Assembly (NCBI GenBank): GCA_963791945.1
Contig: CAWBUD010000002.1
Location: 882,743 to 946,742 of the forward strand
DNA length: 64,000 nucleotides
Origin: an uncultured beta proteobacterium
Lineage (GTDB): Bacteria > Pseudomonadota > Gammaproteobacteria > Burkholderiales > Casimicrobiaceae
Reading direction: 5' to 3'
A program made the position numbers and the translations under genes. This document shows positions 8,873 through 62,545 of the stretch, piece after piece; position 1 is the first letter of the stretch; each line of letters begins with the position of its first letter. A model generated the notes under the pieces. The model saw only the letters and a list, made by a program, of their open reading frames with translations, was not told where the DNA came from and did not search any database.

Positions 8873-8964
8873 TGGCGTCGCAAGTCGTTGCGCGCCGACC
8901 GACGCGAGGAGTAAGCTGACCGCATAGGGCCGCGAACGAAGGGAAGGCTCACCAGGGAGGAACC

Positions 8965-9402: not shown

Positions 9403-9482
9403 ACCAACCGGATGGCGTAGCCCGGGATGAGCGTTAGCGAATCCCGGGGTTCGCCCGGATCAAGTCCGGAGTCACCGCCGGG

Positions 9483-24904: not shown

Positions 24905-25031
24905 GAATCAGCGACGCGCCTGCAGGAAAGCGCGTCGGCCGCTGTCATGTCTTCGAACGCACGGCGCACGGGGACAGACTCCGAACGGCATCGGCGGACG
25001 GAACAAGCGTCCGCCGGTGCGTGGCCGGCCG

Positions 25032-36141: not shown

Positions 36142-37959
36142 ATGTCAGATGCAAAAAAATCCGAAGTCGATGTCGGACGCAGAGATGCCCTGAAGACGAT
36201 CGGAGCGGGAGCTTTGGCCGCATCCTCGGGAGTCGGTCTGCTCGAGAGCAGCACGGCGCTCGCCGCTGCCGGCCCGTCGCGCACCGAGGGGGCCAAGGTC
36301 TCCGGAGACCCGTACAACATTCTGTTCATTCTGACCGATCAAGAGCGCTACTTCCGCCCGGGCGAGCTGCCGCGAGATTACCGGCTGCCGGCGCACGAGC
36401 GCCTCGCGAAGAAGGGAATCGTCTTCGAGAACCACCAGATCAATTCCTGCGTGTGCACGCCATCGCGCTCGGTCCTCTACACGGGCCGGCACATCCAGCA
36501 GACGAAGATGTTCGACAACACCAACTTCCCGTGGATCAGCAGCTTGTCGACCGATCTCCCGACGGTCGGCGACATGTTGCGCGAAGCCGGTTATTACACT
36601 GCCTACAAAGGCAAGTGGCATCTCACCAAGGAGTTCGAGACGGTCAACGAGCTGGGCTCGCCGACGAAGATCTTCACCAAGGAGATGGAGGCCTACGGGT
36701 TCTCCGACTACTTCGGCGTGGGCGACATCATCGCGCACGACCAGGGCGGATATCTGCACGACGGCGTCATCTCGGCAATGGGGGTGAGCTGGTTGCGGGG
36801 GCGAGGCATGGAGCTGGCCGCGGAGGGCAGGCCTTGGTTCCTGGCGGTGAACCTCGTCAATCCGCACGACATCATGTTTCTCAACACCGATCGTCCCGGC
36901 GAGCCGGTTCAGGCGCGCAACATTCTCGGCCATATCCGGCCTGAGCCGGCCAACCCACTGTACGCGAAGCAATGGGCGTTCGAGCTGCCGGCCACCTACG
37001 CGCAGCCGCTCGACGCGCCCGGCCGGCCTGCGGCGCACGCGGACTACATCCGATCGCACGACGCTCTGGTCGGAAACATTCCCAACGAGGACTGGCGCTG
37101 GCGACGGCGTCACAGCTACTACCTCAACTGCCTGCGCGATGCCGATCGCAGCATGGTTTCGCTCCTCGACGAGCTCGAGGCGCTGGGGTTCGCCTCCAAC
37201 ACGATCGTGATCCTGACCGCGGATCACGGCGACCTCGACGGCGCGCATCGACTGCACTCCAAGGGCGCGACGGCTTATCGCGAACAGAACAATGTTCCGC
37301 TGATCGTCGTGCATCCCAGGCTTGCGGGCGGCAAACGCTGCAAGGCGGTGACCTCCCACGTCGATATCGCGCCGACGCTTCTGGGCCTCGCCAATGCGAG
37401 CCCGGAAAAGAAAGCGACGATCGCGAAGGACCTGCCCGGCAAGGACTTCTCGCCGCTGCTCGCGACCCCGGACAAGGCGTCGTATAGCGCGATCCGCGAC
37501 GGGTCGCTCTACTGCTACAACATGTTCGCGTACGTCGATGGCGACTTCATGCAAAAGGTCGTGGGCGTGCTGCAGCAACCGGACGGCAAGGCCAAGCTCA
37601 AGGAAGCCGCCAAGGCGGGCACGATGCGCCCCGACCTGACGAAGCGGGGCGCCATTCGCAGCGTCTTCGACGGGCGCTACCGGTTCGCCCGCTATTTCTC
37701 GCCCAAGCAGCACAACATGCCCGCGTCGGTCGATGCGCTGTTCAAGCTGAACGACGTGGAGCTCTTCGATGTCGAGCGCGACCCGCTCGAGCGCAATAAC
37801 CTCGCGCTCGAGCGAGAGAAGCACGGAGAGCTGCTCCAGACCATGAACGCCAAGCTCAATGCGCTGATCGAGAAGGAGGTCGGCGAGGACGTCGGCCAGA
37901 TGTTGCCGGGCGGCGTGGATGCCGGCTGGGTCGTGACCAACGCGGTGAACGACGTTTGA
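36142..37959 (+). CDS. Sulfatase (Cys-type) with a Tat signal
   Basis: RRDALKTIGAGALAASS twin-arginine leader; CTPSRSVLYTGRH sulfatase signature. Confidence 0.9.
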   Translation: MSDAKKSEVDVGRRDALKTIGAGALAASSGVGLLESSTALAAAGPSRTEGAKVSGDPYNILFILTDQERYFRPGELPRDYRLPAHERLAKKGIVFENHQINSCVCTPSRSVLYTGRHIQQTKMFDNTNFPWISSLSTDLPTVGDMLREAGYYTAYKGKWHLTKEFETVNELGSPTKIFTKEMEAYGFSDYFGVGDIIAHDQGGYLHDGVISAMGVSWLRGRGMELAAEGRPWFLAVNLVNPHDIMFLNTDRPGEPVQARNILGHIRPEPANPLYAKQWAFELPATYAQPLDAPGRPAAHADYIRSHDALVGNIPNEDWRWRRRHSYYLNCLRDADRSMVSLLDELEALGFASNTIVILTADHGDLDGAHRLHSKGATAYREQNNVPLIVVHPRLAGGKRCKAVTSHVDIAPTLLGLANASPEKKATIAKDLPGKDFSPLLATPDKASYSAIRDGSLYCYNMFAYVDGDFMQKVVGVLQQPDGKAKLKEAAKAGTMRPDLTKRGAIRSVFDGRYRFARYFSPKQHNMPASVDALFKLNDVELFDVERDPLERNNLALEREKHGELLQTMNAKLNALIEKEVGEDVGQMLPGGVDAGWVVTNAVNDV

Positions 37960-38153: not shown

Positions 38154-38837
38154 CTACTTGCTCGCCGCCCTGGTCACTAGGTTGAGGAGCTCGCTCGCCT
38201 GCTTGTTGCGCACGGCCTTGCGCGCCAGGATGTCCGGAGCGTGCACGGGGTGGCCGTAGTAGGCACGGTTCCAGGAGTCGGAGGTGGTGATCACGGTCCC
38301 GTCGAAGTTGACGCCACCGTAGACGCCGGTGGCCCGGCTGAAGGAAACGAAATCCGCGGTGATGTCGGAATGAGCACCGGCGCCGATCGGACCGGCGGCG
38401 ACCGCGGCGTCGCCGCCGAGCTTCACGGAATCCGACAACAGCGTGTTCAACCCCTTCTCGGTCATTACCAGGGTCACGACTTCGGAGAACGAGATGCCGG
38501 CCTGGAAACCGATGCTCGCGGTTGCCAGCGTGTAGAAAGCCGGACCGGCCCATTTCCCCGATTTGCTGTCGCGCGCCACGACGATCCCGCGCCCCCCGGA
38601 CCCCCCGAGGATGAAGCCCGCCTTCGCGACATGCGGGGCGATCAGGACGGCTTTCGCGCGCTTGAAATTGCGCTGCAGCCAGGTCATGTCGGGGTCGTTC
38701 AAGAAGTTCGCCAGCGTGACCGTAGCATTGGTCACCAGATTGCGCTGTGAAGCCTGAGCTGCGACAGACGGTGCAGCGAGCAGCATCGACACGGCGACGA
38801 GCGGTGCCGCGATTCGATGGATAGCGGGCGAAGACAT
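38154..38837 (-). CDS. SYLF (Ysc84-like) lipid-binding domain protein, secreted
   Basis: Start at MSSPAIHRIAAPLVAVSMLLAAPSVAAQA (38837); ...GFILGGSGGRGIVVARD...WAGPAFYTLATASIGFQAG...GVYGGVNFDG. Confidence 0.75.
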   Translation of the reverse strand: MSSPAIHRIAAPLVAVSMLLAAPSVAAQASQRNLVTNATVTLANFLNDPDMTWLQRNFKRAKAVLIAPHVAKAGFILGGSGGRGIVVARDSKSGKWAGPAFYTLATASIGFQAGISFSEVVTLVMTEKGLNTLLSDSVKLGGDAAVAAGPIGAGAHSDITADFVSFSRATGVYGGVNFDGTVITTSDSWNRAYYGHPVHAPDILARKAVRNKQASELLNLVTRAASK

Positions 38838-39069: not shown

Positions 39070-40191
39070 TTGTCACTGACCTTATCGGTAGAGCCGGGAA
39101 CAACCGAGTATTGGCGGCTGCTCGAATTCCTGCCGGTCGGCGCGTATACCTGCGACGTCGAGGGGCTGATCACCTACTACAACGCCTCTGCCGCGGTGCT
39201 CTGGGGCCGGGCGCCCAAGTTGAACGATCCTGTCGATCGCTTCTGCGGATCATTCCGGCTGTATTCGATCGATGGCCGTCCGATTCCCCACGAACAGTGC
39301 TGGATGGCGCTGGCGCTCAAGGACCGCAAGGAATACAAGAGAGAGGAGATCGTCATCAAGCGACCGAACGGGGAGCGGGTCGTGGCGATGGCACACGCAA
39401 CGCCATTTCTCGATGAAACGGGAGGACTGCTCGGTGCCATCAATGTGCTGGTCGACATCACCAACCGGAAATTCGCCGAGAACGCCCTTCAGCGCTCGCA
39501 TGACGAGCTCGCCATGATCGTGAGCCGGCGCACCGAGCAACTGACTGCGCTGTCGCAATACCTGCTGCGCGTCGCCGAAGAGGAGAGGCAGCATCTCGCC
39601 GCCGAGCTTCATGACGAGCTCGGCTCCCTGCACGCGGTGCTCGGCATGGAGCTCGAATCGGTGCTCAAGGATCTGCGGTCGCGCGCGCCGGAGCTTGTCG
39701 AACGCCAGGCGAATGCGCTCAAGCTGCTGCAGCAGGCGAGAGACGTCAAGCGCCGCATCATCGCGGACCTCCATCCTGCCACGCTCGATCACCTCGGGCT
39801 CGTCGCTACGCTCAAGGAGCATGTCGAGCGCTGGTCGCGCACCTCCGAGATCGCGGCGAACCTGCAGGTGGCGGTCAAGGTCCCGTCACTGCGGAAAGAT
39901 GCCGCATTGGCTCTCTTTCGCATCGCCCAGGAATCGCTGACCAACATAAGCAAGTACGCGCGCGCGACCAGGGTCAATATCACGCTGGCCGTCGTCGGCC
40001 CGGAACTGGTTCTCGCGATCGTCGACGACGGCGTGGGCATCGATCCAGACAAGCTCGAGCATCCGCACTCGCACGGCATCCTGGGAATGCGCCAGCGCAT
40101 CGCCCAGTGCGGAGGCGAGCTCAGCATCGGTGCCGGCCCGAACGGCGTCGGCACGATGGTGTGCGCGCGTCTGCCGGCTTATCGTTCCTGA
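39070..40191 (+). CDS. PAS-domain sensor histidine kinase, HisKA_3 (NarL-partner) type; no response regulator adjacent
   Basis: PAS-like N-terminus; H-box LAAELHDELGSLH; HATPase region LFRIAQESLTNISKYARA...DDGVGI...HGILGMRQR. The start (TTG at 39070) is uncertain. Confidence 0.8.
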   Translation: MSLTLSVEPGTTEYWRLLEFLPVGAYTCDVEGLITYYNASAAVLWGRAPKLNDPVDRFCGSFRLYSIDGRPIPHEQCWMALALKDRKEYKREEIVIKRPNGERVVAMAHATPFLDETGGLLGAINVLVDITNRKFAENALQRSHDELAMIVSRRTEQLTALSQYLLRVAEEERQHLAAELHDELGSLHAVLGMELESVLKDLRSRAPELVERQANALKLLQQARDVKRRIIADLHPATLDHLGLVATLKEHVERWSRTSEIAANLQVAVKVPSLRKDAALALFRIAQESLTNISKYARATRVNITLAVVGPELVLAIVDDGVGIDPDKLEHPHSHGILGMRQRIAQCGGELSIGAGPNGVGTMVCARLPAYRS

Positions 40192-40306: not shown

Positions 40307-40384
40307 GCGCCCGTAGCTCAGTTGGATTAGAGTACCTGGCTACGAACCAGGGGGTCGTGGGTTCAAATCCTGCCGGGCGCGCCA
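40307..40384 (+). tRNA. tRNA-Arg (anticodon ACG), CCA encoded
   Basis: Acceptor GCGCCCG/CGGGCGC, anticodon loop CTACGAA, T-loop TTCAAAT. Confidence 0.95.
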
Positions 40385-41620
40385 GATTTCAAAGACTTGG
40401 CAGCGAAAACCAGGTCCTCCTGTTTGTTGTGGGACCATTGTGGAACGACTTATCCACCGGTCCCCGCGGATGCGTCGCCATTCATGCACTTGGCGCGCAA
40501 AACCAGGTACTCCTCCTTGCTGTTGGACTCCCGCGATCTCGCTGCGGTGACCGTCAGTGACGCGTAACACGGTCTGGGTGCCGCTCCGGTTGAGAACAAG
40601 GTTCGCCTGTTTCAGCAGGCGCTCGACGTCGGCACTCGCATAGTGACCGGCCATCGAATGATTTGCATGGCCAAGAAGCACTTCACGATCTTCGGCGGAA
40701 ACACCCGCTGCTCGCAGACGGGAGGCGAACGAATGCCGAAGGTCGTGGACGCGAACCAGCGGCAGGCCCGCCTCGCGCCGCGCCTCCTGCCAACCATTGT
40801 TGTTCATGGTTCCAATGCGCCTGCCGCGATAGGGGAAGACCCAGAGCGGATGCTCGCCTCGTTGCGTTTCGATGATCGACCAGGCGACGTCATTCAACGC
40901 CACAACATGTGGACGCTTCGTCTTGAACGCCTCCGGTGGAATCACGAACACGCTGCGGCCGACCTCCGGCACGCCAACCTCCCAGTCCCACTGTAAGCCG
41001 CACACGTTGCTGTCGCACAGCCCCGTGTTAACCGCAAAAAGCGCCATGCGCGCCAAGTGAGCGGGTAGCCTGCGGAACAGCGCGTCCTGTTCCTGCCAGG
41101 TGATGGGGTAGGGCGAGCGCGGATTCTCGGGCAGCATGGTGATGAGCGGCGGCATGGCGTCAAGCCACGGGTGACCATCGGGATCGCGGTACGAACGAGC
41201 CGCCCGATTCAGGATCGTGCGCACCACTTCAAGAGTGCGGTTGATGGTAGTCGTGCTCTTGCCAGCGGCAAGGCGCGCCTTCACGAAGGGTTCCGGTGTT
41301 TGATCATGAACCTGGTGCGGTTCGAGATCGCCGATGTACGACTGCAGCAACGCAACGTGCCATTTGATGACGTCGATGCTGCGCTTGCCGCGCGACTGTT
41401 CGATATAGCGCGCGGCGCAGGCCGTGAAGGTCGGGCGGGCGTGCGCCTTTCGTGTGGCGTCGCCTTGCACGCGAGCCATCTCCGTCTGGAGTCGCTCCTC
41501 GGCTTGTTCCTGTGTGATGCCGCCGACGCGAAGGCCGATGCGTACGCCGAGATATCGCTTGTCAATGAATCGGCGGCCGTCCGCGAGGACAGTGATGCCG
41601 GGCGTTCGTGTCGTGGCCAT
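40340..41620 (-). CDS. int: Tyrosine-type site-specific integrase
   Basis: ...LARMALFAVNTGLCDSNVCGLQW...VRVHDLRHSFASRLRAAGVSAEDREVLLGHANHSMAGHYAS (R...HxxR...H...Y). The ORF only stops inside the tRNA gene, so the last ~75 aa are probably non-native. Confidence 0.88.
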   Translation of the reverse strand: MATTRTPGITVLADGRRFIDKRYLGVRIGLRVGGITQEQAEERLQTEMARVQGDATRKAHARPTFTACAARYIEQSRGKRSIDVIKWHVALLQSYIGDLEPHQVHDQTPEPFVKARLAAGKSTTTINRTLEVVRTILNRAARSYRDPDGHPWLDAMPPLITMLPENPRSPYPITWQEQDALFRRLPAHLARMALFAVNTGLCDSNVCGLQWDWEVGVPEVGRSVFVIPPEAFKTKRPHVVALNDVAWSIIETQRGEHPLWVFPYRGRRIGTMNNNGWQEARREAGLPLVRVHDLRHSFASRLRAAGVSAEDREVLLGHANHSMAGHYASADVERLLKQANLVLNRSGTQTVLRVTDGHRSEIAGVQQQGGVPGFARQVHEWRRIRGDRWISRSTMVPQQTGGPGFRCQVFEIWRARQDLNPRPPGS

Positions 41621-42005: not shown

Positions 42006-43778
42006 TCATTGGGCAACACACGCAAACACCTGCGTATTTGCTTCGCCCTCGAACACCCACCCCTGCGCGAGCATTGCGTTCAATGTGGCTAGGCTAGTGG
42101 TATAGCGATGATTGGGAGCACCCCCCATTCCATTGTTGTACAGCCGATACAGCGCCGTCGTTCCAGGCGGACAAAATCCATTTCCTGTCCCGTATCCTGT
42201 AGGAAGTTGCAGATAGAACGCGATTGCTTCGTACTGCCAGGCCGGTTCCGTTTTGACGATCGCACATTCATTCGGGAGCGGCGTGTAGAAGTGCGAGCTC
42301 TTCGGTGCGAACACGGTGCTGAAGAACCGACAAGTCGGTGAATTAGATGCATCGGGCTGTGCCCAGACGTTGAATGTCTGGCCTGTTCGCTGCCAAAGTC
42401 CCCCAAACGCACCAGCGTCAAGGGCGGCAATCTCATCAGGAAAGGACGTGACGAAGTAATAGTTCCAAGCCGCGTAGTAATACTCGACTGCAGTTTGGGT
42501 TTGTGTCACGGCGGCTCTCGCGTAGACCCACGCCGCCCCGCTGGCTCCCGAGTTGTCGCCGGGGCCGCCCACGATGGCGGTGCTGCCGTCGCTCGAAAGC
42601 GCGACCGAGGAGCCTTGATTTACGGAGCTTCCTACTGCGCCGGCGCCGACCAGCTTCGCGCCCTGCTGGGTCCACATGCCACGGCTGCGCGTGAACACCC
42701 ACGCCGCGCCAACTGGGTTGTCGGCAGCCCCACCCACGACGGCCGTGTTGCCGTCGCCGGAAAGGGCGACGGAGACGCCTTGATGCGAAAATCCAACCGC
42801 CCTGGTGCCGACCAGCTTCGCGCCCTGCTGGGTCCAAGCACCCCCGCTGCGCGTGAACACCCACGCCGCGCCGATTGGGTAGTCGCCAGGCCCACCCACG
42901 ATAGCCGTGGCGCCATCGGCAGAAAGGGCGACTGAGACGCCTTGCTCGACTGGCCCAACGGCAATGGGAGCATATACGGCGCCGGTGCCCACCAGCTTGG
43001 CGCTCTGTTGCGTCCAGACACCAGCAATACGCGTGTAGACCCATGCCGCTCCGGCACTGAGGTTGTCGAGAGCCCCGCCCGCGATGGCGGTGCTGCCGTC
43101 GGCGGACAGGGCGACCGACTGGCCTTGATTAGCACTTCCGACAGCGTCGGTTCCGACCAGCTTCGCGCCCTGCTGGGTCCAGACGCCGCCACTGCGCGTA
43201 AACACCCAAACCGCCCCGACGCCCGAATTGTCCTGTGGCCCGCCCACGGTGGCCGAGTTGCCGTCGGCGGACAGGGCGACCGACTGGCCTTGATTAGCAC
43301 TTCCGACGGCGTCGGTGCCGACCAGCTTCGCGCCCTGCTGGGTCCACATGCCACCGCTGCGCGTGAACACCCAAACCGCCCCGACGCCCGAGTTGTCGTG
43401 TGGCGCGCCCACGATGGTCGTGTTTCCATCGGCAGAAAGGGCGACCGCGGTGCCTTGGTGTACATAACTTCCCGCTGTGCCGGTGCCAACCAATTTGGCG
43501 CCTTGCTGGGTCCAGACGCCGCCGCTACGGATGTAGACCCACGCGGCCCCGACGTCGAAGGTGTAGCCGGCGTCCCGGTCGTCGCCATTCCCGCCCACGA
43601 TGGCCGTGTTGCCGTCGGCGGACAGGGCGACTGAGTAGCCCTGTTCTACAAGACCTCCCACAGCGCCGGTGCCCACCAGTTTTGGCCCCTGTTGCGTGAA
43701 CTGCGCCCTCCCCGGCTGGGATGACAGCGAGGCCGCAGATAACAACAATAGGAGGAGGAAAAATCTCAGCGGTCTCAC
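42006..43778 (-). CDS. Secreted protein: signal peptide, 7 FG-GAP-like ~55-aa repeats (beta-propeller) and a 4-Cys C-terminal module
   Basis: MRPLRFFLLLLLLSAASLSSQPGRAQ. Repeats read GAAWVFTRSGGVWTQQGAKLVGTGAVG..QG.SVALSADGNTAIVGG. The C-terminal ~160 aa are shared with 3 other ORFs in the island. Confidence 0.75.
   Translation of the reverse strand: MRPLRFFLLLLLLSAASLSSQPGRAQFTQQGPKLVGTGAVGGLVEQGYSVALSADGNTAIVGGNGDDRDAGYTFDVGAAWVYIRSGGVWTQQGAKLVGTGTAGSYVHQGTAVALSADGNTTIVGAPHDNSGVGAVWVFTRSGGMWTQQGAKLVGTDAVGSANQGQSVALSADGNSATVGGPQDNSGVGAVWVFTRSGGVWTQQGAKLVGTDAVGSANQGQSVALSADGSTAIAGGALDNLSAGAAWVYTRIAGVWTQQSAKLVGTGAVYAPIAVGPVEQGVSVALSADGATAIVGGPGDYPIGAAWVFTRSGGAWTQQGAKLVGTRAVGFSHQGVSVALSGDGNTAVVGGAADNPVGAAWVFTRSRGMWTQQGAKLVGAGAVGSSVNQGSSVALSSDGSTAIVGGPGDNSGASGAAWVYARAAVTQTQTAVEYYYAAWNYYFVTSFPDEIAALDAGAFGGLWQRTGQTFNVWAQPDASNSPTCRFFSTVFAPKSSHFYTPLPNECAIVKTEPAWQYEAIAFYLQLPTGYGTGNGFCPPGTTALYRLYNNGMGGAPNHRYTTSLATLNAMLAQGWVFEGEANTQVFACVAQ
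42520..43690. repeat. Seven tandem ~165-bp coding repeats (FG-GAP-like blades); units 43095..43259 and 43260..43424 are ~90% identical
   Basis: Direct comparison of the nucleotide sequence. Confidence 0.85.
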
Positions 43779-43934
43779 CTAACCCTCCCTTGCCGGTTCA
43801 GGGGCTATCCGGCATGTTCAGCGACCGTCGCTGAGCGGCCAACAGCGGCCCTAACGCGGGGTCGCTGAGAGCGGTCGTTCGATCCCGCGATCGATGCAAA
43901 GCGGATGCCACTCGCGTGGGAACCCTCAAAGGGG

Positions 43935-45503
43935 TCACAGCGGCGAGCACATTTCCACCGCATTCGGCCCGAGGCCCTCCGCCACCCAGCCCTGGCCGAT
44001 CATCTGCGCGCGCACTGCGAGATCGGTCGTGTAGCGGTGGTTGGGCGCTCCGCCCTGGCCGTTGTTATACAAACGGTAAACTGGCGTCAAGCCTTCGGCG
44101 CATGACCCGTCAGCAGCAGGAACCGCGATGTCGAATGCGTCGGCGCTCTCGAGTGTCCACGCGAGATCCGTTTGCCTGATGGCGCACTCCGTGGCGAATG
44201 GCGTATAGAAATGGGAGCTCTTTGGCGCGAACGCCATGCTGAAGAAGCGACAGACCCGTGCGGAATTCCCGTTCGGAGCCGCATAGGCGTTGAACTGGAG
44301 CCCCGTGCGCACCCAGCCGGGGTATGTGCCATTGTCGAGCTTGCTGATCTCGTCGGGATTCGACGTGATGAAGTAGTGATCGAACGCCGCGTAGAAGTAT
44401 TCGATCACTGGCACGCTTGCCGAGGGCGGCATCCCGGAGAGCTGATACTCGAAAAGGCCGGCGTCGGTTGCCGCGCGCAGGAGCGAACCGGTTCCATCGA
44501 TCGAAAGACTCCGGACGTCGAGGATGGTCAGGCCGGCATTGATTGGCGTCCAGCTCGCTGCGGCATCGGTGCTCCTGAACACGCCTTGGTTCGTAGCGGC
44601 ATAGATCCGTGCAGGCGTGCTGGGATCGATCGCCAGCGCATTTACGAAAATCGTCTCGGGCAGTCCGTCTTGCGCGGCGATCCACGTCTCGCCGCCGTCG
44701 ATGCTCTTCAATACACCGCCTTTATCCGCACTGTCGGAGGTGTAGAAGTACCCAGCATAGACGATGGACGGTATCGCTGGATCGATCGCGAGAGACCATA
44801 TGGCCGCTCCAGCAGGGACAGGAATCGGGACCTGCCGCCATTGCTCGCCGCCGTCGGTGGACTTGAAGATCTTGCCCGTGTCAGGGCCGGAGAATCCGGC
44901 CACCTGCTGGGCGACATACACGACGTCCGCATTCGTCGGATCGATGGCCAACGCGGAAACGTAGAACCCGGTCAGTCCGTTGCTGCGCATATCCCACGAC
45001 AACCCGCTATCGATGCTTCTGAAGACCGCCTCGTTTGCTCCGGCGTACAGCGTTGAGTTCAGCGTTGGCGCGATGGCCACTATTGAAGTGGGCTCGCCGT
45101 TGAACTCGGCCGCCTCCGCCGCCCAATGCGCCCCCCCGTCCATGCTCTTGTAGATGGGAACGTCAGCCAAATCCCAGGGGTCTCCCATGGAGGCGTAAAT
45201 CGTGGCTGAGGAGCGGGGATCGATGACCAGGGAATTGACTTGACCGGGGGCGAGGACTGCCAAGTCGGCCCAATGGCCTCCGCCATCGGTGGTCTTGGTG
45301 ACGGTACCGTACGCGGTATTGCGGTACACCACCGCATAGATCGTAGATGGCGACGAGGGATCGACCGCAAACGGGTAGGCGACGGGACCGATCGCCGTCC
45401 AGCTATTCGTGCCGGCGGCTGCCGGCAAGGCGAATAGCGCCGTGGCGAGGCAACCGACGCAGGCGATGCCGAGCGAAATCACAAGACGAATGTCGCTATG
45501 CAT
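43935..45503 (-). CDS. Secreted protein: signal peptide, BNR/Asp-box beta-propeller (Ycf48/sortilin-like) and a 4-Cys C-terminal module
   Basis: Asp-boxes KTTDGGGHW, KSMDGGAHW, RSIDSGLSW, KSTDGGEQW, KSIDGGETW, RSTDAAASW. The C-terminus IEYFYAAFDHYFITSNPDEISKLDNG...VYRLYNNGQGGAPNHRYTT...MCSPL. Confidence 0.75.
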   Translation of the reverse strand: MHSDIRLVISLGIACVGCLATALFALPAAAGTNSWTAIGPVAYPFAVDPSSPSTIYAVVYRNTAYGTVTKTTDGGGHWADLAVLAPGQVNSLVIDPRSSATIYASMGDPWDLADVPIYKSMDGGAHWAAEAAEFNGEPTSIVAIAPTLNSTLYAGANEAVFRSIDSGLSWDMRSNGLTGFYVSALAIDPTNADVVYVAQQVAGFSGPDTGKIFKSTDGGEQWRQVPIPVPAGAAIWSLAIDPAIPSIVYAGYFYTSDSADKGGVLKSIDGGETWIAAQDGLPETIFVNALAIDPSTPARIYAATNQGVFRSTDAAASWTPINAGLTILDVRSLSIDGTGSLLRAATDAGLFEYQLSGMPPSASVPVIEYFYAAFDHYFITSNPDEISKLDNGTYPGWVRTGLQFNAYAAPNGNSARVCRFFSMAFAPKSSHFYTPFATECAIRQTDLAWTLESADAFDIAVPAADGSCAEGLTPVYRLYNNGQGGAPNHRYTTDLAVRAQMIGQGWVAEGLGPNAVEMCSPL

Positions 45504-46230
45504 GGGCGTCTCCCATTGGCGGCAAGTTTGCTTTGCCTATAGGAGCTTCTAGGGCATGGATCGGCGTGGTGGACGACGGCACGCACGCGAAGGCGAACGT
45601 TCTACCGTCACCTTCGAATACCCAGCCTCCGGCAAGGTATCGGTTGAACGTTGCTAGGCTCGTGGTCAAGCGGTGAGAGGGCCCTCCGCCGAAGCCATTG
45701 TTGTAGAGCCGATAGAGGATGGTCGTGCCGATCGGGCAATTGCCGTTTTCGTCCGGGACCTGCAAGTAGAAGGCAACCCCCTCATATTGCCAATTCGGAT
45801 TAGCCTTCACGCTCGCACACTCGGCGGCGTACGGTGTGTAGAAGTGGTCGAGGTAGAGCACGTCGATCTCACCGCCGCCGGGGTCACGCTGCAGCGCTTC
45901 CTTCGCGTAGAAGAAGCGGCAGGTCGGAAGCGCGCCACCTACCGGACCGGTCCAAACGTCGAATGTTTCGCCGGTGCGCAGCCAAAGCAAGCCGGAAGGC
46001 GTGTCAAGAGCGCCCGTGTTAAGAGCTGCTGCGTCCAGTGCGGCGATCTCGTCGGGAGACGATGTGACGAAGAATGAGATAACGTATTCCTGAAACGTCC
46101 ATAAGCCATATTCGACTGCGGTTTGTACTTGGGCCGCTGCGGGTGTTGCGACACCGAGCAGACCCCAAACCACGAATGCAGCCGTCGCCGCAAGCGCCGA
46201 TGCCCATTTCGCGAAGAAGTGAATGTGCAT
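45496..46230 (-). CDS. Secreted protein consisting essentially of a signal peptide plus the 4-Cys C-terminal module
   Basis: MHIHFFAKWASALAATAAFVVWGLLGVATPAAAQ, then a module homologous to the C-termini of 42006..43778, 43935..45503 and 50946..51953. Confidence 0.7.
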   Translation of the reverse strand: MHIHFFAKWASALAATAAFVVWGLLGVATPAAAQVQTAVEYGLWTFQEYVISFFVTSSPDEIAALDAAALNTGALDTPSGLLWLRTGETFDVWTGPVGGALPTCRFFYAKEALQRDPGGGEIDVLYLDHFYTPYAAECASVKANPNWQYEGVAFYLQVPDENGNCPIGTTILYRLYNNGFGGGPSHRLTTSLATFNRYLAGGWVFEGDGRTFAFACVPSSTTPIHALEAPIGKANLPPMGDAHA

Positions 46231-46386
46231 GAACCCTCCTTGGACGCTATCAAGCCTTGCTTCGAATACGGCCCTTCGCCATGGTCCACCGAAGCGCGAT
46301 TCGCGTCATTGGGGCGTGGATTAATTCTTATTAATCGTGCCGGCGGGCGCTTTCCACGCGACACCAACCGGCCTAATCTGACGCCC

Positions 46387-48942
46387 ATGGACGAAGCTAG
46401 GGCGACCCGATCCAACAGCAGGTACCGGAGCGGAGCCATCGAAATCGATGCGATGCAGCGCAGCGTGCTGATAGACGGAACGCCCGCCAAGATTGGCGCG
46501 CGGGCATTCGATGTGCTGCTTGCGCTCGTCGAGCGTCGCGAGCGGGTGGTTCCCAAGCGCGAGTTGATGGATTTGGTGTGGCCCAAGCTCGTGGTCGAGG
46601 AAGGCAACCTGCTGGTGCATATGGTGGCGTTGCGCAAGTTCCTCGGTTCACGAGCGATCGCCACCATCCCCGGGCGCGGCTATCGGTTCGTGATGCCGGT
46701 CGACGTGATCGAAAGCGGTGGAGCGGCCGAGGCTGCTCGGCCATCGGTCACGATCGGTGGCAACGTCCCGGCCTCGTCGCCGCTCTTTGGTCGCGCGGAA
46801 GATTTGGAGGCCGTGGAAGCTCTCCTCCGCGAACACCCGGTCGTGACGATCGTCGGCGCAGGCGGCATCGGCAAGACGCGCATAGCGCTGGCCGCGGCGG
46901 CTGCCCCTCGGGTCGAATCGCCCCATGGATGCTGGTGGGTGGAGTTGGCCTCGCTCATCGAGGGTGGGCAAGTCCCGAGCAGCATCGCGGGATCGCTTGG
47001 CTTGCAGCTACCCCCGGGTTCGCCGAAGGAGGCGCTTGCGACGACCCTGGCAGCCAAGAGTCTGCTCTTGGTGCTGGACAACTGCGAGCACCTTGCAGAT
47101 GACATCGCTCCATTGATCGATCTCTTGCGCGTGCGGGCTCCGAACGTACGACTGCTCGTGACTTCCCAGGAGTCGCTCAAGTGTCGCGAAGAGCAGGTAT
47201 ATCGTCTCGGTCCGCTGGCGGTACCGGCAAACGCGCAACTCGAAGAGGCCGCCGAGTTCGGCGCAGTAGCGCTGTTCGTCGAGCGCGCCCATGCGGTGGA
47301 TTCCCGGTTTCGACTCGCCGCCGAGAATGTCGAGGTCGTGGTCGACATATGCCGACGATTGGACGGCATTCCGCTAGCCATTGAATTAGCCGCGGCGCGC
47401 GTCCCGATGCTCGGTGTGCACGGTCTGCACGCGCGGCTCGACCAGATGTTCAACGTATTGACCGGCGGCACGCGCATGAAGCTGCGTCGGCACCAGACGC
47501 TGCGGGCCGCACTCGAATGGAGCTATGGCCTGCTGTCCGCGGACGAGCAGACCGCATTCCGCCGACTCGGCGTGTTCGCCGGCGGCTTCACCCTCGAGCT
47601 GGCACAGGAGATCGTCAAGGACGAACGCATCGATCAATGGCTTGTGCTGGACCTGCTGGGTCATCTGATCGACAAGTCGCTGGTGATCGCCGATGGCGAG
47701 GCCGAGCCTGAGCTCCGCTATCGGCTGCTGGACACCACGCGTGCATTCGCGCTCGAGCGGCTTGCCGTCGCAGGCGAGTCCGAAGCGATGCTGCGGTGTC
47801 ATGCCCAAGTGATATGCGAGCTCATGGCGGCAATCGATGCGAATTTCTGGAATCTGTCGGCCGCCGAACACTGTAAGCACAGCAGCGCAGTACATGAACT
47901 GGGCAACCTGCGCGCGGCGCTGGATTGGGTGTTAGCCTCCGAAGACGACCGCACCCTAGCCTATGAACTGCTGGGAAGGTGCTGGCCCGTGTGGATGCTG
48001 AACGGCCTGACCGGCGAAGGCGTGCAGCGAATGCTGCAGCTATGGCCGCCGCCGCCAAACTTGCCAGCGAAAATCGAGGCGGACTTTTGCCTGGCCTTTG
48101 CTCGGCTCAACAAAGACGCCGGCCGCGAGGAACACTGGGAAGCCGCGCGTCGCGCAACTGCTCTGTATCGGAAGCTCGACGATGCGGACCGGCTCGGCCA
48201 TGCCCTCTTGGTTGTCGCAACGATCGGTGCGCTGAGACACCAGATATCAGAGGCGGAGCACGCGCTGCGCGAGGCCGAGAAGCTCGTTACTGCTACCGCA
48301 GCTTTGCGTAAACAGGCGGCGCTCGCGGCAACGCAAGGGCAGTGTTACCTGCGGCGTGGCGCCGCTGAACTCGCGATCGCCGCATTCCGTCGCCAGGTCG
48401 AGCTGTATCGCTGCGCGGGCGACATGCTTGGCGAGAATGCCGCGATCGGCAACGTGGGTAGCGCTCAGCTCGACGCCGGCGACCTGGATTTAGCGATCGA
48501 ATCGTTGCGCAAGTCGGTCGATGGCCTGCGTAGAATCAACGCGCCCTACGGAGTGGAATTTCGTCTCGGCACGCTGGCGCTCGCTTTGGCCTGGCGCGGT
48601 GATGACGTCGACATTCTTCCGCTCGCGCGCGAGGCGTTCGACCACCACCGTCTGCTTGGTGTGACGTTCGCCCCTCTGATGGCTGCCGCGCTACAGCACG
48701 CCCGAGGCGACAATGCGCGACGTGCCGTCCTGCTCGCCGGCTACGCGTGCAACACGCCGTCATTGCGCGAGCCTCCGAGCCTGATTGCTCTGCCCATACG
48801 GCAACGGGTGCGCGATCGCGCGGCGGCCCAGCATCCTGCGGCAGCGGTCGAAACCTGGCTGCATGCCGGCGAACGTCTGACCGAAGAGCAGGCAGCTGCG
48901 ATCGCGTTCGATGACGCTCCGCTAGAGGGGCTGCATGAATGA
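46387..48942 (+). CDS. Transcriptional regulator: OmpR/PhoB-type winged-helix DNA-binding domain, STAND P-loop ATPase and TPR-like C-terminus
   Basis: Start at MDEARAT (46387). ...IGARAFDVLLALVERRERVVPKRELMDLVWPKLVVEEGNLLVHMVALRKFLG..IATIPGRGYRFV (wHTH); VTIVGAGGIGKTRIA (Walker A); LVLDNCEHL; GIPLAIELAAARV. Confidence 0.8.
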   Translation: MDEARATRSNSRYRSGAIEIDAMQRSVLIDGTPAKIGARAFDVLLALVERRERVVPKRELMDLVWPKLVVEEGNLLVHMVALRKFLGSRAIATIPGRGYRFVMPVDVIESGGAAEAARPSVTIGGNVPASSPLFGRAEDLEAVEALLREHPVVTIVGAGGIGKTRIALAAAAAPRVESPHGCWWVELASLIEGGQVPSSIAGSLGLQLPPGSPKEALATTLAAKSLLLVLDNCEHLADDIAPLIDLLRVRAPNVRLLVTSQESLKCREEQVYRLGPLAVPANAQLEEAAEFGAVALFVERAHAVDSRFRLAAENVEVVVDICRRLDGIPLAIELAAARVPMLGVHGLHARLDQMFNVLTGGTRMKLRRHQTLRAALEWSYGLLSADEQTAFRRLGVFAGGFTLELAQEIVKDERIDQWLVLDLLGHLIDKSLVIADGEAEPELRYRLLDTTRAFALERLAVAGESEAMLRCHAQVICELMAAIDANFWNLSAAEHCKHSSAVHELGNLRAALDWVLASEDDRTLAYELLGRCWPVWMLNGLTGEGVQRMLQLWPPPPNLPAKIEADFCLAFARLNKDAGREEHWEAARRATALYRKLDDADRLGHALLVVATIGALRHQISEAEHALREAEKLVTATAALRKQAALAATQGQCYLRRGAAELAIAAFRRQVELYRCAGDMLGENAAIGNVGSAQLDAGDLDLAIESLRKSVDGLRRINAPYGVEFRLGTLALALAWRGDDVDILPLAREAFDHHRLLGVTFAPLMAAALQHARGDNARRAVLLAGYACNTPSLREPPSLIALPIRQRVRDRAAAQHPAAAVETWLHAGERLTEEQAAAIAFDDAPLEGLHE

Positions 48943-49014: not shown

Positions 49015-50007
49015 ATGCATCCGATCTCGACGAGGCTGAGTCGATGCTTTCATGCGGGCATTGCCGCTGTGCTTGTAGCCACGTCGGGCGGCGCGTTGCC
49101 GCAACCTTATCCCGCCAAGCCGATCTGGCTGATCGTGCCTTTCGCGCCGGGCAGCACGGCCGATATTGTGTCGCGCTATACCGCGCAGGAACTTTCCAAG
49201 GCGCTCGGCCAGCCGGTCGTCGTTGAAAACAAGCCAGGGGCGGGCGGCACCATCGGGACGGCAGAGCTCGCACGTGCTGCGCCCGACGGCTACGCGATAG
49301 GCTTTGCGTCGCAAAGTACGCTCGTGTTCAACCAAGGCATCTACGCGACGCCGGGTTACGACTCTGTAAAGGACTTCGCGCCGATCGCGCTGCTCGGGCG
49401 CGTGTCGAACGTGATGGTCGTGCATCCGAGCAGCGCGGCGTCCACGCCGGCCGACATCATTGCGGTTGCAAAGTCCAAGCCAGGCACGGTGACATTCTCG
49501 TCGGGTGGTAGCGGTACCAGCCATCACTTGTCCGGTGTCTTATTTGCTCGCGCCACCGGTACCGATCTCGTACACGTGCCGTACAACAGCGCGCCACAGG
49601 GCGTCCTGGCGGTAATGAAGAATGAAGTGATGATGGGCTTTTTCAACATGCCGACGGTGATCGGTCCGATCAAGGACGGGAGGCTCAAGGCACTCGGCGT
49701 GACAAGCCTTACGCGGTCGTCGCTGTTGCCGGACGTGCCGACACTCGACGAGCAGGGTATCAAGGGGTACGAGGTCGACGCGTGGGCCGGCTTCGTAGCG
49801 CCGGCTGGAACTCCGCTTGAGATACTCGACCGACTCAACGCAGAGCTGATCAAGATATTCGCGAGTGCGGACGCACAGAAAAGGCTTGGATCCCAAGGAT
49901 TCGATCTGTCGCCGCCCCTAACGTCAGCTGCGTTCAGCCAGCTTATCGCCGATGATCTGATGCGTTGGGTGCCGATCGTAAAGGCGTCCGGCGCGAAAGC
50001 GTATTGA
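49015..50007 (+). CDS. Bug-family (TctC-like) tripartite tricarboxylate transporter substrate-binding protein; orphan, no tctAB adjacent
   Basis: YPAKPIWLIVPFAPGSTADIVSRYTAQELSKALGQPVVVENKPGAGGTIG... Confidence 0.88.
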   Translation: MHPISTRLSRCFHAGIAAVLVATSGGALPQPYPAKPIWLIVPFAPGSTADIVSRYTAQELSKALGQPVVVENKPGAGGTIGTAELARAAPDGYAIGFASQSTLVFNQGIYATPGYDSVKDFAPIALLGRVSNVMVVHPSSAASTPADIIAVAKSKPGTVTFSSGGSGTSHHLSGVLFARATGTDLVHVPYNSAPQGVLAVMKNEVMMGFFNMPTVIGPIKDGRLKALGVTSLTRSSLLPDVPTLDEQGIKGYEVDAWAGFVAPAGTPLEILDRLNAELIKIFASADAQKRLGSQGFDLSPPLTSAAFSQLIADDLMRWVPIVKASGAKAY

Positions 50008-50320
50008 ACGTAGATACGGCATGGGAGCAGTATAGCGCGGCGCCCCCATCAACCTGCCGGCACAAAGCATGTCCTTGGTGTTCAGTTAAGGCGGGCTTTC
50101 GTGAAGCCTTTTCGGCCGAAATGAATGTCCGCAGTCGCGGCATTGCCGCCGTTGGCAGCGCGAAGCTCAACGGCAGCAAGGGGTCGAAAGCACCGCTGAG
50201 CGACTGCTTTCGGGGTCGCGGGTCAATGTCCGCAGTTGGCCTATTCTGTTGAAAAACCCCCTTGAAAATGAGCGCCTTGTGGCTATGCTTGAAGCCAAGG
50301 TGATCGAGGGAGAGGCAAGG

Positions 50321-50937
50321 ATGATGGGACAACGGCCTGGCGGACAGAAGCAGCTGTTCTACTCCTTCAATCTCGACGATCACGTTCCGTCCGATCATTT
50401 GTTACGCGGAATTGATCAGTTTCTTGATCTAGGTGAATTGCACCAGCACCTCGCCCCGTTTTACAGCCATACCGGCCGTCCCTCGATTGATCCCCAGCTG
50501 CTGATTCGCATGCTGATCGTGGGTTACTGCTTCGGCATCCGGTCGGAGCGGCGGCTATGCGAGGAGGTGCACCTGAACCTGGCGTATCGCTGGTTCTGCC
50601 GGCTGGGATTGGAAGACCAAGTGCCGGACCACTCGACGTTCTCGAAGAACCGGCATGGTCGTTTCCGTGACAGCGACACACTGCGTTTCGTGTTCGAGCA
50701 GGTCCTGGAGCGCTGTGTGCGGGAGGGGCTGGTGGGTGGTGAAGGGTTTGCCATCGATGCCAGCCTAGTTAAGGCCGACGCCAACCGTCAACGCGGCGTG
50801 CCCGGTGCTGAGGCCGACTGGTCTGACGGGCAATCGATCAGCCGCCCGGTGCGTGAATATCTGGCGGCTCTGGATCAGGCAGAGGTGGAGACGAGCACGC
50901 CTAAGAATATCTCGCTGACCGATCCGGCGGCACGGTG
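50321..50937 (+). pseudogene. IS1182/IS5-like transposase, N-terminal fragment (DDE domain missing)
   Basis: MMGQRPGGQKQLFYSFNLDDHVPSDHLLRGIDQFLDL...SIDPQLLIRMLIVGYCFGIRSERRLCEEVHLNLAYRWFCRL...TDPAARW, after which the homology stops. Confidence 0.7.
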
Positions 50938-50945
50938 GTGGGAGG

Positions 50946-51953
50946 TTGCTCATGCTCCTCACATCGATTCGCCTCGGGTTCTTGCTTACGACCCTCGTCG
51001 CTTCGCTTCACGTCGTCGCGGCACCGCGATTCTGGACTCTCGCCGATGTGCGGTTCAGTGATGGAACGGTCGCCGCCGGGTATTTAAGCTACGACGATAC
51101 GATGCAGACGATCTCGAACTGGAATATACGCGTCGACTCGGGCTTTTTTTTCCCGGCCTTCTCCTACGTTCCCGGCAACTCCATGGTGAACGTCGTCCAA
51201 CCTTCTGGCGGAGCGCCAAAGCTAGACTTCTCCGCCACAATGGGCGTGCCCGGACCGTATTTCGGAGTGCGGCAACTGCAGATCACTCCGGTTGTAGCGC
51301 TCGACGGCAGTAACGCTACGGTATCGCTCGATACCTCGGCATCAAGAGAAGATTTCCCTTCCTTGCAACCGCCGCGTGGCCGCTCGATCACCGCCGGCTC
51401 GCTGACGCTGACGTCGGTGCCACCGCCGGTCGTCATCGTTCAAGTTGACGAGTTCTACAACCCGGTGTTGCGGCACTATTTCATCACAGCCGACGACGCG
51501 GAAAAACAGTTCCTCGACGCCGGCGCCCATCCCGGTTGGGAGCGCACCGGGGAGTCATTCAAAGCGTACGCCCGAGGGAGCAGTACCGGTGGTTCCATCA
51601 ACCCCGTGTGCCGCTACTACAGCCCCCCCATTATCGAAGTTGACGTTGGATATGTTAATGGCGCCGATTCCCACTTCTTCTCGGCCGACGCAGGTGAGTG
51701 CCTGAGCGTGTTTATGAAATGGGAGGTGTTCTGGCTTTTGGAAAGCGACAACGCGTTCCAGATCAACGTGCCCGACAAGGAGACGGGCGCCTGCCCCGTC
51801 GGAACGATTCCGGTGTACCGTCTGTGGAACCAGCGGACGGATTCCAATCATCGCTACACGACAAGTGCAGCGACCAAGGCGAAAATGATCGCTGCGGGCT
51901 ATGCCGCGGAAGGCTACGGTGCGGACGGTGTCGTAATGTGCGCGGTGCAGTAG
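50946..51953 (+). CDS. Secreted protein: signal peptide, a unique N-terminal domain and the 4-Cys C-terminal module
   Basis: MLMLLTSIRLGFLLTTLVASLHVVAA. The C-terminus VDEFYNPVLRHYFITADDAEKQFLDAGAHPGWERTGESF...VCRYY...SHFF...ECL...ACPVGTIPVYRLWNQRTDSNHRYTT...MCAVQ. Confidence 0.7.
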   Translation: MLMLLTSIRLGFLLTTLVASLHVVAAPRFWTLADVRFSDGTVAAGYLSYDDTMQTISNWNIRVDSGFFFPAFSYVPGNSMVNVVQPSGGAPKLDFSATMGVPGPYFGVRQLQITPVVALDGSNATVSLDTSASREDFPSLQPPRGRSITAGSLTLTSVPPPVVIVQVDEFYNPVLRHYFITADDAEKQFLDAGAHPGWERTGESFKAYARGSSTGGSINPVCRYYSPPIIEVDVGYVNGADSHFFSADAGECLSVFMKWEVFWLLESDNAFQINVPDKETGACPVGTIPVYRLWNQRTDSNHRYTTSAATKAKMIAAGYAAEGYGADGVVMCAVQ

Positions 51954-52255: not shown

Positions 52256-53035
52256 CTATTGGGAAGGTACATTTGCGTACCACACCTGTGTAATGGCATC
52301 GCTAAAACCTATCTCGATCAGCTTGGCGAAGGCACGATTGTCCTCAAGCCATCGCGTTAATGTGCTGGAATGTATCGGCTCGGAAAAAAACACGTCTTGC
52401 CGTATGTGGCCGGACATCAGCTGTCGATCGCCATCTACGCCAATGAATCGATATTGCAATGCAACGGCCGAACGCATTTCGCAATCCTTCCCGGCATAGT
52501 CGAAGTCGAAGTTGATGCTCAGCTGCTCCAGCTCCAAGAGTGTTCCGACGTTTAGGGCCTTGGCTTGATGTAAAGCTGCCTCATGGGACGGTTCGGCGCC
52601 ACTGTCAGCGTCGTGTACTGCTATGACTTTGAGATCTGCGTAAGAACTGAGATGGCCCAGAAAGTCCTCGAGGACTGTTTTCTTCGAAACATCCTGATTA
52701 ACGATTTTGACGATTTCACCGGACAGGTCGGGGTTAGCCTCGTAATATGACGTTACGCAGGCGGCTCTGTCGGCCTCCGCCCCTACAGCTCCGGGAACGT
52801 GGAACACTGCGTCAGGTCGCCCTGCGAATAGTCCCAGAAAGCTAACCACTGCGCCCAAAGCTGCCGTCGCCCCAACGCGCGCCGCGCCGCTGTCGGGCGT
52901 CGCAACCGTCACTGCTGGACCGGTGCCCACGAGAGCCGCTCCGAAGGGCCGACTGCGGTCGAAATTCACCGGTCCCTTGGTCGCGCAAGCGCAGAGAAGG
53001 ATGACCGCTGCGGCGCCGCAGCAGCTGGTCCGCAT
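52256..53035 (-). CDS. Hypothetical lipoprotein (visibly lower GC than its surroundings)
   Basis: MRTSCCGAAAVILLCACATKG has a lipobox-like LCAC. No recognisable domain. Confidence 0.45.
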   Translation of the reverse strand: MRTSCCGAAAVILLCACATKGPVNFDRSRPFGAALVGTGPAVTVATPDSGAARVGATAALGAVVSFLGLFAGRPDAVFHVPGAVGAEADRAACVTSYYEANPDLSGEIVKIVNQDVSKKTVLEDFLGHLSSYADLKVIAVHDADSGAEPSHEAALHQAKALNVGTLLELEQLSINFDFDYAGKDCEMRSAVALQYRFIGVDGDRQLMSGHIRQDVFFSEPIHSSTLTRWLEDNRAFAKLIEIGFSDAITQVWYANVPSQ

Positions 53036-53360
53036 GACCGAAGAAGCAGATCTGGCCGGACCGAGGGCAACGACGACAAGTGGCTCGCGCACGGCAACTC
53101 CCCTTTGGCGTTATTGGGGCGACGGTTCCCTCGCCGGGGAGCCGGCCGGGAATCGTATTCCCGCAAACGCCCGACGCCAAGTACGCCGCTATGCCGTCGG
53201 TCAGTGCGAGCCGGGGACGCTCAGAGATTCGCGCAACGACGGCTGCTAACGAGCCACAAGCGGACGTCAACCATCCGCTCGTGCAGGCAGCTCGGTCCGG
53301 TTGTCGTTCAGGCCGCTAGACGGAATCCGTGCTTCACGCCTCGTATCGTCGACGCCAATC

Positions 53361-55207: not shown

Positions 55208-55747
55208 ATGCTTAGCGCCGCAACCAACGTGGCTGACGCGCTGCCGAGCGCTGAGCTTCATGCAGCGCTTCCGCGGTTGCGTCGCTATGCCCGCGTTCTT
55301 ACTCGTGATGTGCACCGCGCTGACGACCTGGTGCAAGACACACTCGCGCGAGCTTGGGAAAAGCGGCAGTTATGGCGTGCCGGTAGCGACTTGCGTGCTT
55401 GGTTGTTCACGATCATGCACAACATGCATCTGAATCAGTTCGCGACCCGGCAGCGCGATAATGCGTTAGTGTCGCTTGATGATGACGAGGCAGCGAGCGG
55501 TGGCGGAATCTCCATTCGCGCCACACAATTCGACCACGTCGCTACAGCCGAGGTGTTGGCGCAGATCACTGCTCTGCCCATCGGCCAGCGGGAGGTGCTC
55601 GTGCTGGCGGCAATCGAAGGACTAAGCTACGAAGAGATAGCGCGGGTGTTGGGTATACCCGTGGGGACCGTGATGTCGCGACTTTCTCGAGCACGGGAGA
55701 AGCTACGCCGCAGTGCCGTGACGGGAGATGCTGCGGGTGCTCGCTGA
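55208..55747 (+). CDS. ECF-type RNA polymerase sigma factor (no cognate anti-sigma directly downstream)
   Basis: Region 2 DDLVQDTLARAWEK...WLFTIMHN; region 4 QREVLVLAAIEGLSYEEIARVLGIPVGTVMSRLSRAREKLR. Confidence 0.9.
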   Translation: MLSAATNVADALPSAELHAALPRLRRYARVLTRDVHRADDLVQDTLARAWEKRQLWRAGSDLRAWLFTIMHNMHLNQFATRQRDNALVSLDDDEAASGGGISIRATQFDHVATAEVLAQITALPIGQREVLVLAAIEGLSYEEIARVLGIPVGTVMSRLSRAREKLRRSAVTGDAAGAR

Positions 55748-56146
55748 CATGGCGCTCCGCGATATATCTTTCAGGATCGCCATATGACCGGAGTGGGCAG
55801 GGACTTGCTGGCTGAAGGCGACGGTGCGCAGTCCAGCTGCGGTTGTGGCGGTTTAGCAATAAGTCCGCCACACGCGCTCTCACCGATACGCGCTAAGTCG
55901 GATCTCCCTCAACCGAGAGGAGATCGCGATGGAAGCCAAGCATGTTGCTCAACGGCTCAAACCGTGGAACGAGGGCATCTCGTTGGCAACGTCATTGAGC
56001 TGGCGGCGGCCGATCAACCAGTACCATCGACTCCAGCGCATGGGCGTGACGCCGGCGGGCAGCGTCCGGCCAAAGCGAGGCCGCCCCAGGCCACGAAAGA
56101 ATGGGCCGGTCCTACGGTTCGAGACCCGGGCCGGCTGTCCCGCACT

Positions 56147-62499: not shown

Positions 62500-62545
62500 G
62501 CTACGAACCAGGGGGTCGTGGGTTCAAATCCTGCCGGGCGCGCCA
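62500..62545 (+). repeat. attR: displaced 46-bp copy of the tRNA-Arg 3' part
   Basis: Exact match to 40339..40384. A further ~20 nt upstream is a degenerate D-arm/anticodon-stem copy. No 5' acceptor strand is present. Confidence 0.9.

Follow-up and report, generated by a model that had tools for sequence, protein, structure and literature searches.

Three adjacent, co-directional genes in the genome of an uncultured betaproteobacterium of the Casimicrobiaceae encode secreted proteins that differ in their N-terminal parts and end in the same four-cysteine module, which raises the questions of what this module is and what it does on such different partners. The genes lie in a 64,000-nucleotide (nt) stretch, hereafter the window (GenBank assembly GCA_963791945.1, contig CAWBUD010000002.1, positions 882,743 to 946,742; coordinates below are those of the window). 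A first-pass annotation, made from the sequence alone, had described the module as distinct and merely reminiscent of DUF5648, had considered a lectin, a cell-surface-binding or a secretion/sorting role for it, and had taken the genes for a functional system rather than random paralogs. Our analysis places the module within DUF5648 (PF18885), as a C-terminal, betaproteobacterial subfamily with two predicted disulfides that is carried in a regulator-linked, island-borne cassette. DUF5648 itself was already catalogued, and its fold and probable role had been proposed before.

The three genes, their signal peptides and their scaffolds were found as the annotation had described them (Table 1). The 590-amino acid (aa) protein matched Pfam FG-GAP_2 (55.9 bits, five stretches); its propeller has seven units of ~55 aa, six of them regular-expression matches and the first read by eye. 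The 522-aa protein matched Sortilin-Vps10/BNR (49.2 bits versus a cut-off of 33), and the 244-aa protein consists of a signal peptide and the module, nothing more. A hidden Markov model built from these three copies and run against the six-frame translation found exactly four copies in the window, the fourth (E = 2e-35) in a 335-aa protein whose N-domain (50946-51450) is an all-β orphan with six homologues in 5.8 billion proteins, and is poorly modelled by AlphaFold2 (AF2; predicted local distance difference test score, pLDDT, 45-70). All four proteins have signal-peptide-like N-termini, with one or two K/R residues, an uncharged run of 12-21 residues and then an AxA-type site, the last judged by eye. 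The four modules (~160 aa) align with a mean column identity of 58% and share four invariant cysteines (C1 to C4). As the annotation had also noted, the end comes soon after C4 except in the 244-aa protein; the distance is three residues in three proteins and 27 in this one. The 244-aa gene and the next one share 8 nt, from the ATG of the latter to the stop codon of the former (ATGCATAG), which suggests that the 244-aa and 522-aa genes are translationally coupled within an operon. Recent tandem duplication of the three adjacent copies was rejected because their mutual identity is 43-62%, versus 82-95% to relatives elsewhere; the 244-aa protein has 95% identical relatives (P0002, P0003).

Table 1. 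Features of the DUF5648 cassette and of the island that carries it (window coordinates).
Feature	Position	Strand	Remark
tRNA-Arg (ACG)	40307..40384	+	ARAGORN; last 46 nt (40339-40384) = attL
Tyrosine integrase adjoining the tRNA	40340..41620	-	Pfam Phage_integrase, 60.3 bits
590-aa secreted protein: signal peptide, 7-unit FG-GAP_2 propeller, C-terminal DUF5648 module (about 42009-42509)	42006..43778	-	
522-aa secreted protein: signal peptide, BNR/Sortilin-Vps10-type propeller, C-terminal DUF5648 module (43938-44429)	43935..45503	-	
244-aa stand-alone protein: signal peptide, DUF5648 module (about 45574-46134, two loop insertions), 27-aa tail	45496..46230	-	
GATTAAT-TCTT-ATTAATC: two ATTAAT hexamers 10 bp apart, divergent intergenic region	46319..46336	.	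Candidate operator/promoter element
Regulator: OmpR/PhoB-type winged helix, STAND NTPase (GAGGIGKT), TPR repeats	46387..48942	+	Divergent from operon
TctC/Bug-family periplasmic solute-binding protein	49015..50007	+	Pfam TctC, 221.9 bits
IS5-type transposase fragment (DUF772) between cassette and fourth copy	50249..51061	+	
335-aa secreted protein: signal peptide, orphan all-β N-domain, C-terminal DUF5648 module (about 51426-51950)	50946..51953	+	
attR, right copy of 46-nt direct repeat	62500..62545	+	Exact repeat

Against the DUF5648 profile (134 positions), the four window proteins scored 48.1, 50.8, 38.1 and 50.0 bits, all above the curated gathering cut-off of 25, and 90 of 90 diverse cluster representatives matched it too. 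A precomputed PF18885 label stands on all 120 best relatives, and JGI already names some homologues 'DUF5648'. The best stretches of the window proteins are shifted in register along the profile (positions 42-133, 58-128 and 8-82); close relatives cover positions 7-130 and 6-130 in a single stretch, that is, the whole domain. The shared module is one complete DUF5648 domain and not a new kind of module, so that the annotation's distinct module does not stand. As to a full-length match with a characterized domain of known function, which the annotation had weighed against its own proposal, the catalogued domain is there and the known function is not. No NCBIfam model exists for the module, and in PHROGs it matched just one family, weakly and of unknown function. 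The module profile had no matches among PDB sequences even at E ≤ 10 (hmmsearch), tblastn against 72,556 plasmids returned zero matches, and look-ups of the exact sequences of the 522-aa protein and of P0067 were empty.

The module might still be a previously unrecognized domain that only resembles DUF5648, or a catalytic domain that uses its invariant R/H/E residues. Its Pfam scores are modest (38-51 bits, versus 280-313 bits on the subfamily's own profile), the four cysteines and the longer inter-blade loops are peculiar to the subfamily, and the lack of an NCBIfam model would be expected of a new domain. However, the curated threshold is passed by every window copy and every representative, near full-length profile alignments were found, and the repeat number, motif and predicted fold agree with the published DUF5648 description. 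Furthermore, the invariant residues recur in each repeat, as structural or binding motifs do, and not as in a single active site. A new or catalytic domain is therefore highly improbable; the four cysteines are the mark of a DUF5648 subfamily, not of a separate domain.

Internally, the module comprises three ~45-aa repeats (the three H[YF][YF]T units of the first-pass annotation) that align with one another and have the consensus PVxRxY..HFYT..E..GW..EG. An AF2 model of the module of the 522-aa protein, made from a 115-sequence alignment (pLDDT 96, predicted TM score 0.90), gave the DSSP order E-E-H-E(-E) three times, i.e., three β-β-α-β(-β) blades. By secondary-structure order, this predicted fold matches the '(β3-α)3', or three-bladed β-α propeller, reported for DUF5648 on the basis of AlphaFold models of GH70 enzymes (PMC11299179) and BSAP toxins (PMC12853789). 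The window modules resemble the GH70 domains in scoring above the gathering cut-off, in their three ~45-aa repeats with an R-x-Y...H-F-Y-T...E...GW..EG motif, in the predicted β1-β2-α-β3 order of each repeat, and in being extracytoplasmic and beside carbohydrate-related domains (PMC11299179). They differ in having four invariant cysteines, hence two presumed disulfides, longer inter-blade loops and a length of ~160 aa versus 134 positions; modules of the subfamily also lie nearly always at the extreme C-terminus of secreted propeller or Ig-like proteins of Gram-negative bacteria (Betaproteobacteria), whereas the GH70 domains are found in Firmicutes glucansucrases. A Foldseek search of viral models gave one unnamed match (E = 1.4e-4, TM 0.55), which is uninformative.

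All four cysteines are present in 337 of the 365 full-length modules collected. Ten modules have two cysteines, and in every one C1 and C2 had been lost together (the replacements being YY, WY, SY, HY and HF) and C3 and C4 kept. The model places C1 where the first strand of blade 2 begins and C2 in the helix of that blade; C3 immediately precedes blade 3, and C4 belongs to the last strand. The joint loss of C1 and C2 implies that C1 would pair with C2, within blade 2, and C3 with C4, within blade 3.

The distribution of the subfamily bears on its role. When all 1.84 billion cluster representatives (50% identity clusters) were searched with the profile, 10,144 clusters matched at E ≤ 1e-3 and 1,836 at E ≤ 1e-30. 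Genomic matches came almost all from uncultured soil or water Betaproteobacteria, in Casimicrobiaceae and Burkholderiales metagenome-assembled genomes (MAGs), with several module copies per genome and at least seven in one MAG. As the annotation had supposed, the preference for the C-terminus holds elsewhere: the module lies within 12 residues of it in 127 of 142 representatives (~89%), most of which end 0-3 residues past the module, and it is C-terminal in about 88 of 105 modules from the window and the 80 related loci used for context comparison. Such a bias would suit a C-terminal secretion or sorting signal that is read, and perhaps removed, by an export machine, like the C-terminal domain of the type IX secretion system (T9SS) or sortase and exosortase tags. 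On the other hand, 12 of the 142 representatives have the module at the N-terminus and three internally, nine are stand-alone proteins, and DUF5648 occurs as an internal, auxiliary domain in other phyla (PMC11299179). Moreover, a Sec signal peptide is already present in each protein, and the module, as a confidently modelled, compact 160-aa α/β domain with predicted disulfides, is neither a short tag nor a β-sandwich. Neither Pfam nor NCBIfam matched it to a sorting-domain family (T9SS C-terminal domain, PEP-CTERM, autotransporter). The sorting signal raised by the annotation is thus quite unlikely, although less so than a new or catalytic domain.

The partner domains fall in 65 Pfam families, mostly β-propellers (Kelch, Sortilin/BNR, DUF5122, NHL, Vgb_lyase) or Ig-like arrays. 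The module of the 590-aa protein shares 81% identity with that of P0124, a protein that starts with an unrelated DUF5122 propeller and is encoded on a contig too short to reveal its gene context; the 522-aa protein has a module with 81% identity to the one in a Kelch fusion from a related locus (L059). Modules this similar thus sit on unrelated heads, between which they are shuffled. A DUF5122 β-propeller, one of the propeller types fused to DUF5648 elsewhere, was also found in the window in a giant 3198-aa open reading frame (ORF; 25032-34628, minus strand), together with Big_3_5 matches and no DUF5648 tail.

One conserved tail on 65 partner families, with several copies per genome and near-identical tails swapped between unrelated heads, might alternatively be a protein-protein docking or targeting domain, dockerin-like or receptor-binding, that ties the heads to a common protein partner. 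Such a partner might be a scaffold, a receptor in the outer membrane or a protein on the surface of a competitor cell; relatedly, the C-terminal domains of BSAPs are generally receptor-binding (PMC12853789). However, no scaffold or partner gene is conserved in the related cassettes described below (L021, L081), and what functional clues the literature offers for DUF5648 all point to glycans. In addition, three-fold pseudo-symmetric repeats with conserved aromatic residues, such as those of the module, are typical of sugar binders. Docking to a protein therefore seems unlikely, if not as far-fetched as a sorting role.

The gene divergent from the operon, which the annotation had called a STAND regulator, proved to have the architecture of one. 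It matched Trans_reg_C above the cut-off (44.6 bits), NB-ARC, nSTAND and AAA_16 below their cut-offs (E about 1e-3) and TPR_8 weakly; the Walker A sequence GAGGIGKT and the motif LLLVLDNCEH are visible, and paralogues match NB-ARC and TPR more clearly. A winged helix, a P-loop NTPase and C-terminal repeats are thus combined in one protein. Their order is that of AfsR/HilA-like regulators, and there are weak NCBIfam matches to HilA/EilA and AfsR, but with scores far under the equivalog cut-offs. The ORF is open from a TTG at 46123; the conserved start, MDEARATR, lies at 46387, and the ATG there is probably the true start. A second STAND protein, with adenylate/guanylate cyclase, NB-ARC and TPR domains, adjoins the giant ORF (21923-24907, minus strand).

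Homologues of the regulator occur in nine of the 80 related loci, and eight of these nine lie ≤1.5 kb from a module-bearing gene. Distant paralogues (in L070, L023, L047, L048 and L080) are included, so that the link between regulator and DUF5648 is not only inherited synteny; orthologues lie in L021, L040, L059 and L081. The order TctC, regulator, stand-alone copy, BNR fusion recurs in L021 and in L081, a farmland metagenome contig in which two further DUF5648 genes follow the cassette, and L023 has the trio of stand-alone copy, BNR fusion and regulator at far lower identity. These observations support a recurrent, regulator-linked cassette rather than random paralogs, in agreement with the annotation. 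L021 is a 10-kb contig (DASYQV010000288.1) binned as Vicinamibacterales (Acidobacteriota), and its BNR-fusion module is 87% identical to that of the window; either a binning error or horizontal transfer might account for this. Next to its regulator orthologue, L040 has a Kelch-DUF5648 gene (8704-10471) split in two frames (441 and 241 aa), so that it is a pseudogene with a frameshift unless the long-read assembly is wrong here.

The third gene of the L081 cassette encodes a full-length match, with 69% identity, to the 335-aa protein of the window. The gene of the latter is therefore a displaced member of the same cassette, now parted from it by the TctC gene and the IS5 fragment, the latter probably marking the rearrangement that displaced it. 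The fragment overlaps the start of the 335-aa gene. Since the TctC gene is syntenic with the cassette in close relatives only (its place is unchanged in L021 and L081) and these loci contain many TctC genes, its adjacency is probably incidental.

The region between operon and regulator contains an AT-rich element, GATTAAT-N4-ATTAATC, whose two ATTAAT hexamers are one helical turn apart and which does not vary when the intergenic regions of the window, L021, L059 and L040 are aligned. It is the single such site in the window, where none is expected by chance, and L021, L059 and L040 are the only ones of the 80 loci to have it. It may be an operator for the winged-helix protein or, alternatively, overlapping -10 elements. 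A consensus promoter and terminator scan gave sites no more frequent than in shuffled sequence. Neither this site nor the linkage of a STAND regulator to DUF5648 operons appears in the few papers that mention DUF5648.

A 22.2-kb integrative island (40339-62545), a feature absent from the first-pass account, contains the four DUF5648 genes together with the regulator gene. As is the case for tRNA-integrated islands, its bounds are an exact 46-nt direct repeat of the 3' end of a tRNA gene, here tRNA-Arg, and an integrase gene adjoins the tRNA, into which its ORF reaches 45 nt on the opposite strand. The GC content is modestly shifted, to 0.59-0.64 in the island from 0.62-0.68 upstream, with the largest difference at 50-56 kb. 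The cassettes of L081 and L059 have ordinary chromosomal neighbours (Ku/LigD, GroEL), indicating that in the window the cassette is cargo and does not belong to the island's own functions.

A lectin or surface-binding role for the module, as the annotation had suggested, is plausible and agrees with the literature proposal for DUF5648. The domain has been placed in the C-terminal domains of BSAP-2 and BSAP-3, targeting O-antigen (PMC12853789; PMC4999547), and BSAP-2 requires the O-antigen of its target (PMC4999547). DUF5648 is also an auxiliary domain, with surface aromatic grooves, in GH70 glucanotransferases (PMC11299179), and a DUF5648 tail has been reported on a GH25 endolysin. Partners of the subfamily are carbohydrate-associated as well, including Kelch/NanM-like and BNR/Sortilin propellers and a sub-threshold match to a glycosylhydrolase family. 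Like BSAP-2 and BSAP-3, the window proteins are secreted and carry DUF5648 at the C-terminus, the N-terminal part being the effector in the BSAPs and O-antigen recognition being proposed (PMC12853789; PMC4999547). Unlike these MACPF toxins, they have no MACPF or toxin domain, their heads being FG-GAP, BNR or orphan β; the BSAPs, compared here by description, are from another phylum (Bacteroidales), and no O-antigen replacement genes adjoin the window genes. The logic of one binding tail on many heads, in multiple copies per genome, is shared with carbohydrate-binding modules (CBMs), LysM, SH3b, choline-binding repeats and dockerins, but the DUF5648 tail has neither sequence nor fold kinship to these anchors (Foldseek against PDB: none at E ≤ 0.001).

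By analogy with these systems, we lean slightly towards the DUF5648 tail being a glycan- or cell-surface-binding anchor for exchangeable propeller heads; we go no further because binding has been measured for no DUF5648 domain. Several points weigh against this reading. No DUF5648 domain has a solved structure, and the glycan-binding idea in the literature itself comes from BSAP genetics and domain context (PMC12853789). Foldseek against 350,542 PDB chains gave no matches at E ≤ 0.001 (best TM 0.26) and so, together with the empty profile search, no likeness to lectin or CBM folds with solved structures. The disulfide pairing is deduced from co-loss and from placement in the model. As to regulation, no sigma-70-type promoter was predicted upstream of the operon, and the link between regulator and motif is putative. 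Finally, the cassette is best conserved in close relatives (69-95% identity), for which common descent could be part of the reason.

If the DUF5648 tail is such an anchor, the proteins would be exported by Sec and oxidized in the periplasm or outside the cell. The tail would then act like a carbohydrate-binding module or lectin-type anchor that ties interchangeable heads (FG-GAP and BNR/Sortilin here; Kelch or DUF5122 in relatives) to a glycan, for which lipopolysaccharide O-antigen, exopolysaccharide and environmental polysaccharide are candidates. The stand-alone copy might serve as a free lectin or competitor. The winged-helix-STAND-TPR protein would probably sense a ligand via its TPR/NTPase part and control the operon via ATTAAT-N4-ATTAAT, the whole cassette being cargo of the tRNA-Arg island in this genome.

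Other genes in the island include two for extracytoplasmic-function-type sigma factors (55208-55747 and the C-terminal half of 55784-56713), one for an RskA-type anti-sigma factor (56575-57426), an IS630-type DDE_3 gene or fragment (57852-58961) and an orphan 278-aa ORF with no Pfam match (52256-53092). Near its right end are two DUF3455 genes (59855-60445 and 61367-61996) and one for an orphan 172-aa protein with a signal-peptide-like N-terminus (59262-59780). An IS481-type rve gene lies just outside attR (62589-63779). Immediately left of the island are genes for a sulfatase (36142-37959), a Ysc84-domain protein (38154-38780) and a PAS/HisKA_3 histidine kinase (39070-40191), and, farther off, a Mutator-family transposase (20303-21574).

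DUF5648 is widespread (10,144 clusters match the present profile alone), yet it is mentioned in only about five papers. For annotation, genes like those in the window are to be labelled DUF5648-domain secreted proteins, not a new module. The 244-aa stand-alone copy, with its putative stabilizing disulfides, is a compact, confidently modelled candidate that could give both a first DUF5648 structure and a test of glycan binding, and the regulator-linked cassette offers a route to the conditions under which module proteins are made. A bolder but unlikely possibility is that in uncultured soil Betaproteobacteria (Casimicrobiaceae and relatives) the two-disulfide tail defines a lineage-specific surface-display or targeting system that can be transferred on integrative islands, in which a common, dockerin-like anchor is quickly recombined onto dozens of β-propeller and Ig-like heads under the control of dedicated winged-helix-STAND-TPR sensors and an ATTAAT-N4-ATTAAT operator. 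If this were true, these bacteria would have a dedicated extracellular display system rather than a scattered carbohydrate-binding domain.

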